DNA of 64,000 nucleotides from Escherichia coli. GTDB lineage: Bacteria > Pseudomonadota > Gammaproteobacteria > Enterobacterales > Enterobacteriaceae. The position numbers were made by a program. Below are positions 7,601 to 10,600 of this stretch, piece after piece. Location of the stretch: the NCBI RefSeq assembly GCF_046105845.1, contig NZ_CP151004.1. The stretch is one strand, 5' to 3'. Numbering within the stretch: the stretch's first letter is position 1; every line of letters begins with the position of its first letter.

Positions 7601-10600
7601 TAATGGCATTCAGAATGAGTGAACAACCACGGACCATAAAAATTTATAATCTGCTGGCCGGAACTAATGAATTTATTGGTGAAGGTGACGCATATATTCC
7701 ACCTCATACAGGTCTGCCTGCAAACAGTACCGATATTGCACCGCCAGATATTCCGGCAGGATTCGTAGCCGTTTTCAACAGTAATGAGGCATCGTGGCAT
7801 CTCGTTGAAGATCATCGGGGTAAAACGGTTTATGACGTGGCTTCCGGCGACGCGTTATTTATTTCTGAACTCGGACCGCTACCGGAACATGTCACCTGGT
7901 TATCCCCGGAAGGGGAGTTTCAGAAGTGGAACGGCACAGCTTGGGTGAAAGATGCAGAAGCAGAAAAACTGTTCCGGATCCGGGAGGCGGAAGAAACAAA
8001 AAACAGCCTGATGCAGGTAGCCAGTGAGCATATAGCGCCGCTTCAGGATGCTGTAGATCTGGAGATCGCAACGGAGGAAGAAAATTCGTTGCTGGAAGCC
8101 TGGAAAAAGTATCGGGTGTTGCTGAACCGTGTTGATACATCAACTGCACCTGATATTGAGTGGCCGATAATTCCTGTAACATCATAGTCATTATTTATTT
8201 GTTTTGCTGACATGTTGTATACGACAACGTGTCAGCAGTTTGACTGGTATTATAACGAATATATTGTAATGTTTTCTGGTGTTATTAATTGTTGTTTTAT
8301 TACCATATATCTATGGGTTTTGTTTTCTGCTCATCTAAACAAAATGCACAGATGTAAGCCCCCTTACTTCGGTTGTACTGAACCGTTTCTAAAGCAGAGT
8401 CAAGATGTTTACTATCAAAGTTCCAGCTTTTTTCCATAACAGAAACACATTTTCTGCAATAGAAACTTTCTTTTGAGTTAGTATCTCCTGAATCATTTTT
8501 AGTGTAGCCAAAGAATTTTTTTGCTGATTCCTTTGAACATGCGGAAATGGCTGCAGTGAACTCATAATGAGTTTGAAGCATAGCCCATACAATACCTGAA
8601 AATTCTTCATCCTCGTCTTCATCTAGTCCTATATTAATGCCGCCAGAGGAATGTATTGCTTTATATTTATACCTATGCCATATCCAGTGTGCTGATTCAG
8701 TATTTAGATAGTTGTGAGCACGTACAACTGATGTGAAAATTAGCTCTGGCATTATATCTGTTTTTTTATCAACCGTATGCATAAAACGATTTCTTAGAAT
8801 GCGCATACTATTAAACCAAGTAATAAAGTCATCAGGCAGTGATTTAGAGGCGAAAGTATTATATACTTTAATTAAATCTTGGGCGTCTAATGTGTGGAAG
8901 TCTGAAAATGAAATGTTACCTTCACTATCAGGTTTAGGTGTATTGCGAGTTGCATTCGTGATAAGTAGATAAGGTGATATTTCGACGATAAGTCCTTTTA
9001 GTCTGAATTCAATGGATTGAAGTATCAAATTAAAAGATGTAATCAATTTTGGTCTAGCAAATAACCAATAATGCTCTAAATTTTTAATATCTGATTCTGT
9101 ATAGAATTTAGACGTTTTACAATAACTATTCCAAAGGTTTATATCTCTGTAATCATAAGCTAAATCGGCAATTTTTTCCCAAGCCTCATTTACCATGTGG
9201 TCAGCCATTGTATAAAAATCAGTCTTTGTTGGAATGTCAGTTATCATTATCAATCTACCTTTGGGTCTTTATTGTTGTCTATCAAGATATAATATTCAGG
9301 CTGGAGTGGCTAATGTTGATCTACTTATTTTCTCCCGGTAAGTCAGTTTATCGCGATATAAGCCGCATTTGATTTTGGCGACTATGGTCGTGTTAGGTAT
9401 GTATCTGGCGTGTTACTGCGCCAGATTAAATATAAACCAATAATATTAAAGGGTGTTACTCTCTTGACAGATTTAGGGAACAAATCACTCGTCAGCTGAC
9501 TCCCAAGTATCTTTCAGAGTTTCCTGAACAAAAGTTTTAGCTGAATCTTTATCGGCGGTGCGCCTAACAGAAAAACCATCGTTGCTGGTGGCTTTTACGA
9601 TCATCTCCACATCGTCATAATGCTCGCCAATGTATTGGGTTAATTCTTCCTTTAATGCGTCTACAGCGCCGTTTGGCATTTGGTCATTTTGTCTTTGGCT
9701 ATGGAGATCTCAATACGCATAACATTTCTTTTGTACTGCGTTTGTAGACAGTATTATTCTTATCTGTGTAAATAAACAGTATCAAGACTTCGTTTTAGCT
9801 GCATAAGAAAAAAGAGATGGATACATTCGGAAAGATTTTGATGGTGGTAGGCTAAGTGAATAGCCTAAAGGTGTTTTACCCCAATTATTCCCCGGTATTT
9901 CTCCGCATAAAAAACAATCATAAAAACAACAGCCATAATAGGCTGGTTCTTAAGGGATTTTTGGTCCACGAGAGAATTTGAACCTCCGACCCCCGACACC
10001 CCATAATGGTGTAATTAATCAGGTTAAATATTTAGCAGATCCTCTACAATATCATTAAACCCAGATGCCTGTTTAGATACAGAATTGAATAAGTCTCTAA
10101 GTGCTTGTGTTTGCTCAAAAGTTTCCCAAAGTGTTTTATAACTTGGCGTTACAATTGCTAATACTAAGCCTTCCGCCCATGACCATTCATGTTCATCAAA
10201 ATAGTAGCGATATTTTCTGCTGTATATAACAAAATCCTTTTCCTTATATTTAGCATGAAACACAACTTGAATTATATCCTGTGTACCATTAACAAGGTTT
10301 TCAGGCGCATCAATTGCCATCCAATTTATCATTTTTTGGACAGTTAACTTATTTAATGAAACAATTAGCTTTGTGGTTTTATCGTTATGCATAATTAGTC
10401 CAGTTGCATATCTTTCACAATTTCGTTAACTCTTGAGTTGAGTATACTCAACTTCTCATAGAGCTTCCAGGCTTGGTCTTGGTCATTGATATTAATGGAG
10501 ATTTCTTTTCTTCGAAAGATTCCTTTGGGTTTGACTTCATCAAAAAATATATCAATCTTTGAGCGTTCCTTGGTTGGAAGCCTGCTGAAAAGGCTTTCAG

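Follow-up and report, generated by a model that had tools for sequence, protein, structure and literature searches.

The gene analysed here is a broken dinI-like gene at 9473–9720 on the minus strand of a 64,000-nucleotide (nt) stretch of Escherichia coli DNA (RefSeq assembly GCF_046105845.1, contig NZ_CP151004.1), hereafter called the window, and it has close relatives among described systems. In E. coli DinI (structure 1GHH; RecA–DinI cryo-electron microscopy structure 7YWA; Pfam family PF06183), residues W77 and F78 together with L13, L21 and W71 make up the pocket that receives F203 of RecA, and alanine substitutions of W77/F78 impair stabilisation of the RecA filament (PMC9926225). The dinI genes of lambdoid coliphages, such as dinI of Lys8385Vzw, gp30 of cdtI and gp21 of mEp460 (PHROG 189), are open reading frames (ORFs) of 249 nt that are preceded by a GAGGG Shine-Dalgarno sequence and usually lie just downstream of int. 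In the Gifsy prophages of Salmonella, a dinI homologue is part of a LexA-regulated operon of dinI, antirepressor and irsA genes (Lemire et al. 2011, PMC3121763); non-polar deletions of this dinI had no effect, and the homologue is dispensable for the operon's known function (PMC3121763).

Restoring one base makes the window protein match E. coli DinI from end to end, including the motifs MRIE(I/V)xIAK, GA(V/I)DAL and (D/E)TWESAD(E/D)WF, and the gene likewise lies behind an SOS-type promoter with LexA boxes. Unlike the chromosomal dinI, however, the window gene is phage-borne, its frame is broken at codon 14/15, its Shine-Dalgarno sequence has been lost and a stop codon stands in place of the W77 equivalent. 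With the lambdoid coliphage genes it shares ~84–88% nucleotide identity over promoter and gene, tandem LexA boxes and an 82-codon layout, but it is a defective allele located beside the relic of a tRNA-Pro attachment site. As in the Gifsy operon, a prophage dinI homologue stands first behind a LexA box and has further same-strand genes after it, whereas the Gifsy dinI is intact and expressed, and the downstream gene in the window, which may be co-transcribed, encodes an unrelated HEPN-like protein. The pseudogenes of E. coli HS and UK_Dog_Liverpool have the same frameshift, are 99.6–100% identical to the window over 801 nt and are identical to it in the gene itself (HS also in the promoter); that of CFT073 also has the same frameshift but keeps TGG79 and a WFVH tail, and its 3′ half is of the intact-phage type. 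With a probability of about 90%, in our view, the window locus is what remains of a phage-borne, LexA-controlled dinI-like gene, a pseudogene that has become fixed and is inherited.

A first-pass annotation, made from the sequence alone, had described a DinI-like gene split by a one-base frameshift, and both frames were found as described. From the ATG at 9720–9718, the minus strand reads through 19 codons to a TAG at 9663–9661; in this N-terminal fragment (9661–9720), codons 1–14 correspond to DinI strand β1 and loop, and the final five codons are out-of-frame read-through. The annotation thus had the layout right, from 9720 to a stop, but left out the last five codons before the TAG. In the −1 frame, a 64-codon ORF (9485–9679, minus strand) begins at the ancestral Met15, spans the region from DinI helix 1 to most of the C-terminal helix and ends in WESADE; no Shine-Dalgarno sequence precedes its internal ATG. 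The whole pseudogene runs over 248 nt from the ancestral ATG to the ancestral stop codon, a TAA at 9475–9473. Both the 64-residue piece (E = 9e-14, 52.0 bits) and the one-base-repaired 82-residue protein (E = 4.5e-16, 59.4 bits) match Pfam DinI (PF06183) above its cut-off of 24.2 bits; the repaired protein also matches PHROG 189, 'RecA filament binding protein DinI' (7.5e-26), and its residues 1–81 align to residues 1–79 of E. coli DinI in 1GHH. The match of the split gene to the DinI family is far beyond chance. The single ORF of ~80 codons from MRIE to WF(V) that marks the family is lacking, being interrupted by a deletion at 9681–9679 and a TGA at 9487–9485. The two-frame layout, which the annotation considered might prove to be shared by homologues, is confined to the defective allele: every intact copy that we extracted (121/121) is a single open 249-nt ORF.

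The lesions were mapped by alignment to the intact dinI genes of phages Lys8385Vzw, cdtI and mEp460, all annotated as 249-nt coding sequences. This comparison with intact homologues of related prophages, which had been proposed with the first-pass annotation, revealed that a four-A run has lost one A. At the break site the intact genes read ATG ACT AAA ATG CCA (ATGACTAAAATGCC) and the window reads ATG ACC AAA TGC C, such that the remaining AAA run lies at 9679–9681 (minus strand) and a T-to-C change adjoins the deletion. Inserting one A at 9681–9679 rejoins the ancestral frame, in agreement with the earlier placement of the shift within about 9677–9690 and with the earlier statement that one extra A would reunite the two frames.

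Two further lesions had been missed by that annotation, as had the two LexA boxes upstream. At 9485–9487 (minus strand), a premature TGA replaces the TGG (Trp79) found in intact genes and in the CFT073-type copy, and beyond it the ancestral frame goes on as FVP* to 9473. According to the 1GHH alignment, this stop takes away the equivalents of DinI W77 and F78, since W79 has become the stop codon and F80 lies downstream of it; among the residues of the pocket for the RecA L2 loop (L13, L21, W71, W77 and F78), the equivalents M15, L23 and W73 are therefore still encoded, and W79 and F80 are lost. At the Shine-Dalgarno position (9727–9731, minus strand), the window reads AAAGA in place of GAGGG. 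Wherever upstream sequence was available for an intact copy (~85 copies), it shows GAGGG, GGAGG, GGGGA or GAGGA 5–7 nt before the ATG, and AAAGA is found in 11/11 of the frameshift copies tabulated.

Sister copies with the same frameshift have gained additional in-frame stops, S60* and W73*. These copies, which we refer to as the MLI107 type, are those of MLI107, EC20-4B-2, 8178, AH21F008, GPEC1054 and FDAARGOS_1292 together with two metagenomic viral contigs, and the RefSeq pipeline PGAP marks the six genomic ones as 'frameshifted; internal stop', or in one count five with this label and one as plain 'frameshifted'. In genomes identical to the window over this gene, PGAP annotates 9485–9720 as 'DinI-like family protein, frameshifted', a label that is also given in HS, CFT073, UK_Dog_Liverpool and 2020N21-246, with a copy at tRNA-Pro among those so marked; the corresponding RefSeq pseudogene loci are ECHS_RS13740 (E. 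coli HS), C_RS14945 (CFT073) and DL545_RS06845 (UK_Dog_Liverpool). The pseudogene is therefore already flagged in RefSeq, and our literature search found no paper on DinI-like pseudogenes. Between the options that the first-pass annotation had left open, the three lesions, the in-frame stops of the sister copies and the PGAP label all favour that of a pseudogene.

The defective allele is widespread and invariant at the break. An exact 42-nt match to the frameshift allele was found in 240 of 5,426 complete E. coli genomes; for a query repaired to four A residues (A4), every one of these 240 matches needed a gap, and a repaired copy was thus present in 0/240. Conversely, a query in which the commonest intact background was given the three-A (A3) deletion found 942 genomes, in each case with a gap and in no case exactly; the A run is not a hotspot for insertions or deletions. 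Length heterogeneity at the A run, suggested in the first-pass annotation as something that populations might show, was thus absent across the 240 and 942 genomes. Among IMG/VR viral contigs, four have the frameshift allele, at least 120 have the intact ACTAAAATG form and none has the repaired one. Searching with 801 nt spanning the gene returned 11 records at 99.6–100% identity, including four separately deposited HS assemblies, and CFT073 is represented among the carriers of the allele by at least four assemblies from separate depositions; for both HS and CFT073, the original genome was reportedly obtained by Sanger sequencing. The exact 64-residue product is encoded on 438 contigs; submitters to GenBank entered it under the name 'DinI family protein', one such entry being ABV07033.1, from HS. 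Among 161 hits from a database of 5.8 billion proteins, none was an 82-residue protein with the N-terminus of the window allele.

Alignment of 17 frameshift copies showed that all of them (17/17) have in common a near-identical 5′ block of ~330–400 nt, made up of a tRNA-Pro fragment or a tRNA-Pro gene, a spacer, the promoter and the beginning of the coding sequence (45 nt). In the window, the outer end of this block is a degenerate 49-nt 3′ fragment of tRNA-Pro (9962–10010, minus strand), which, aligned to a full tRNA-Pro gene, has one C-to-T change and a 2-nt deletion and lies ~240 nt upstream of the pseudogene, even though the window locus is at ssrA. This fragment is the relic of a phage attachment-site core. 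In other strains a complete tRNA-Pro gene adjoins the same block, indicating that the module containing the pseudogene came from the attachment-site end of a phage that integrated at tRNA-Pro.

Divergence among the frameshift copies is 2–3% in the 5′ block versus 11–12% in the 3′ 207 nt (Fisher p about 2e-5 to 6e-5), and the 3′ halves fall into three types, namely the window type, the CFT073/CCUG 73778 type, which is essentially intact phage sequence, and the MLI107 type. Nonsynonymous changes make up ~50% of the 3′-half differences, compared with a neutral expectation of ~80% (p about 0.001–0.003). The pairwise ratio of nonsynonymous to synonymous substitution rates (dN/dS) is 0.17–0.33 among frameshift copies, versus a pooled value of 0.12 in the 121 intact copies, with the 3′ halves being recombinant imports. 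We read the low dN/dS as divergence older than the inactivation, which recombination brought together with the defective 5′ block. The protein P0247 (EMV2320562.1), encoded on a single contig, is an in-frame, 78-residue DinI-like protein that combines an intact-type 5′ half (N-terminus MRIEICIAKEKMTKMPTG) with a window-type 3′ half including the TGA; in this recombinant, the frameshift and the TGA are seen to be separable by recombination.

The allele was found at both ssrA and tRNA-Pro, and beside lambdoid prophages as well as prophages with a contractile tail and a baseplate. A further occurrence is in pZ1323HEC0010-3 (NZ_CP148393.1), a 44,611-bp record deposited as a circular plasmid, which has terminase, portal, capsid, tail, tail fibre, lysis and integrase genes and a repressor region, and which shares with the window, at 99.9% identity, a cassette of a 153-residue ORF, a 122-residue ORF, the dinI-like pseudogene and a 315-residue ORF. 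The record probably represents a phage genome that was excised or is episomal. The presence of the allele in these several settings, pZ1323HEC0010-3 included, indicates that the defect is old and tolerated by phages that are perhaps still viable.

Lesions, fixation, the absence of reversion and mosaic structure are each directly visible in the aligned sequences, and the following history very probably accounts for them. A single one-base deletion in the four-A run at codons 14/15 would have broken the frame, and the same lineage would also have lost the Shine-Dalgarno sequence; the window sub-lineage would then have gained the TGG-to-TGA stop and with it lost two RecA-contacting residues, so that presumably no functional DinI-like protein is made from the locus. 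The defective 5′ block would have spread by recombination, coming to be joined to several dinI 3′ halves, at the two attachment sites and in more than one phage type, and would hitch-hike in the cargo region beside the attachment site. Hitch-hiking is the simplest reason for the persistence of the allele. Several observations pull the other way. The dN/dS of 0.17–0.33 is well under the neutral value of 1, making selection on a truncated product conceivable for the window type, in which the 64-codon internal ORF is also still open and common (438 contigs). Moreover, the allele resides in an apparently complete, circular lambdoid genome of 44.6 kb, and for that reason its persistence is not just a by-product of prophage decay.

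The promoter region of the pseudogene appears well preserved. A sigma-70-like promoter (9756–9785, minus strand) consists of a −35 element, TTGATA, at 9785–9780 and a −10 element, AAGAAT, at 9761–9756; it is overlapped by LexA box 1 (TACTGTTTATTTACACAGAT, 9762–9781, minus strand), and LexA box 2 (TACTGTCTACAAACGCAGTA, 9734–9753, minus strand) covers the predicted transcription start. Both boxes are of the form CTG-N10-CAG, putative sites for the SOS control that characterises the DinI family; in box 2 this pattern is retained despite an A-to-G change (ACAG to GCAG). All frameshift copies have both boxes and the −35 and −10 elements intact, and judging from these elements the LexA-controlled promoter would still fire. 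The related pattern TACTGT-N9-CAG occurs seven times in the window, compared with 0.25 expected by chance. Elsewhere in the window we found a LexA-box-like cluster of three overlapping or adjacent TACTGT-N9-CAG matches at 15226–15267, which we take, from the gene order near smpB and ssrA, to be probably the recN promoter, as well as single LexA-box-like sites at 41207–41224 and 51531–51548.

This preservation bears on a possible, though doubtful, extension of the pseudogene reading, with which it is compatible and to which it would add a reason for persistence, namely that the dead gene owes its retention to a role as SOS-inducible promoter/leader cassette and recombination anchor, with LexA cleavage leading to transcription into downstream cargo. 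Intact LexA boxes and −35/−10 elements in copies whose Shine-Dalgarno sequence and frame are dead would fit such a role, as would the lack of a predicted terminator between the pseudogene and the 315-codon ORF, and Gifsy offers a precedent for a dinI homologue heading a LexA-controlled operon (PMC3121763). The downstream gene on the same strand also differs among strains. It encodes an HEPN-like protein in the window, a DUF262-domain protein in five genomes, an acyltransferase in 8178 and a DUF4236 protein in CCUG 73778, and in CFT073 two genes, YnaM/YnfT and YdfK, lie downstream; the position 3′ of the pseudogene behaves as a cargo hotspot. We observed that the DUF262-domain protein, with 629 residues, is encoded on the same strand in MLI107, EC20-4B-2, AH21F008, GPEC1054 and FDAARGOS_1292; DUF262 presumably belongs with GmrSD-type restriction enzymes. 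Several features nevertheless speak against retention for the sake of the promoter. The entire ~330-nt 5′ block is equally conserved, including a spacer without known function, and thus gives no sign of promoter-specific selection; box 2 has its A-to-G change; ~230 nt separate the pseudogene from the next gene; and in GPEC1054 an IS2 element is located between the pseudogene and the DUF262 gene.

A bolder form of this idea, which we regard as rather unlikely, is that the 5′ block as a whole, comprising the tRNA-Pro relic, the tandem-LexA promoter and the untranslated leader, is a portable SOS-inducible expression and recombination cassette that keeps the dead gene in place. If this were true, a block at the attachment-site end of tRNA-Pro and ssrA prophages would turn on exchangeable defence-type cargo upon DNA damage, such as the HEPN-plus-zinc-ribbon protein here, and the DUF262, acyltransferase or DUF4236 proteins in other strains.

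Quite improbable is a second alternative, in which translation starts at the internal Met (9679) and yields a truncated, 64-residue DinI-like protein that keeps some activity. The ORF is open, scores 9e-14 against Pfam DinI and has been deposited as a protein, and the 3′ halves differ from one another with a dN/dS of less than 1. However, the internal ATG lacks a Shine-Dalgarno sequence and the upstream ATG has lost its own, the product would be without strand β1 and without the W77/F78 equivalents needed for RecA binding, and sister copies with the same frameshift have two in-frame stops within this ORF. The truncated ORF is probably not functional.

Still less credible is the restoration of full-length DinI by programmed −1 ribosomal frameshifting or by transcriptional slippage at the A run. 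While a −1 shift after the AAA codon gives exactly the ancestral TKMP sequence, the zero frame (ATG ACC AAA TGC) contains no X XXY YYZ heptamer, and a shift on ACC AAA T would need tRNA-Lys to re-pair on CAA; transcriptional slippage, in turn, needs a much longer run than three A residues. For the 100 nt that follow the site, the minimum free energy is −13.4 kcal/mol, against −15.0 on average for shuffled versions (z = +0.6), so that folding is not favoured over that of random order, and no GGAGG-like element lies upstream of the site, the Shine-Dalgarno sequence of the gene itself being lost. Even after a shift, translation would terminate at the TGA, and the two-frame layout is limited to one allele lineage with a near-identical 5′ block, the 121 other homologues being in frame.

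Weakest of all are the remaining options of the first-pass annotation, a sequencing or assembly error in a homopolymer and a slippage-prone, phase-variable contingency tract: the indel does sit in a short A run, but error and switch are both ruled out by the finding of an identical allele in 240 complete genomes, several separate depositions of HS and of CFT073 among them, by the absence of a repaired variant anywhere searched, with the A3 form in 0/942 intact alleles, and by the exact product on 438 contigs, and the tract, with three A residues here and four in intact alleles, falls short of the long homopolymer (~7 nt or more) of a phase-variable gene and is free of length polymorphism among related isolates (240 genomes, 942 genomes and IMG/VR).

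As a routine prophage pseudogene, the locus matters little in itself. For curation, the 64-residue 'DinI family protein' entries such as ABV07033.1 should be treated as fragments of a dead gene, and the frameshift should be left as it is, not 'corrected' as if it were a homopolymer error. Mildly useful for the mapping of prophage cargo is the fact that the defective 5′ block, its LexA boxes intact, precedes different defence-like genes in different strains.

The surroundings bear out the earlier suggestion that the DinI-family gene is prophage cargo, the context being that of a degraded prophage. Downstream of the pseudogene, the 315-codon cargo ORF (8300–9247, minus strand) encodes the HEPN-like protein, which has a four-Cys zinc ribbon and an RNxxxH motif that is invariant, and may be co-transcribed from the LexA-controlled promoter. 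It is followed by a tail-fibre assembly gene (7603–8187, plus strand), a remnant of a tail-fibre C-terminus (6938–7603, plus strand) and an IS3-family transposase gene with rve and HTH_21 domains (5789–6835, minus strand), beyond which lies ypjA (1806–5819). On the other side, hypothetical ORFs of 122 residues (10024–10392, minus strand) and 153 residues (10395–10856, minus strand) separate the tRNA-Pro relic from ssrA, the gene for transfer-messenger RNA (tmRNA; 11039–11401, minus strand). For the three hypothetical ORFs next to the pseudogene, no useful match came from Pfam, PHROGs, PADLOC or NCBIfam. The locus is a prophage stump of ~4 kb between the IS3-family transposase gene and ssrA, and no head or tail morphogenesis genes were found in this degraded prophage.

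An Rfam scan of 8200–11500 at E ≤ 1 returned only tmRNA and noise, with no known RNA gene inside the pseudogene. The Klebsiella small RNA DinR was considered as a parallel and set aside, because it derives from a Klebsiella-specific 3′ untranslated region (PMC10907235). In UK_Dog_Liverpool, the same end is found within a larger, still defective lambdoid prophage that lacks head and tail-shaft genes and has a partial endolysin gene. The pair of 122-residue and 153-residue proteins (WP_000551278.1 and WP_000353836.1) is also encoded in E. coli HS and in the circular record pZ1323HEC0010-3.

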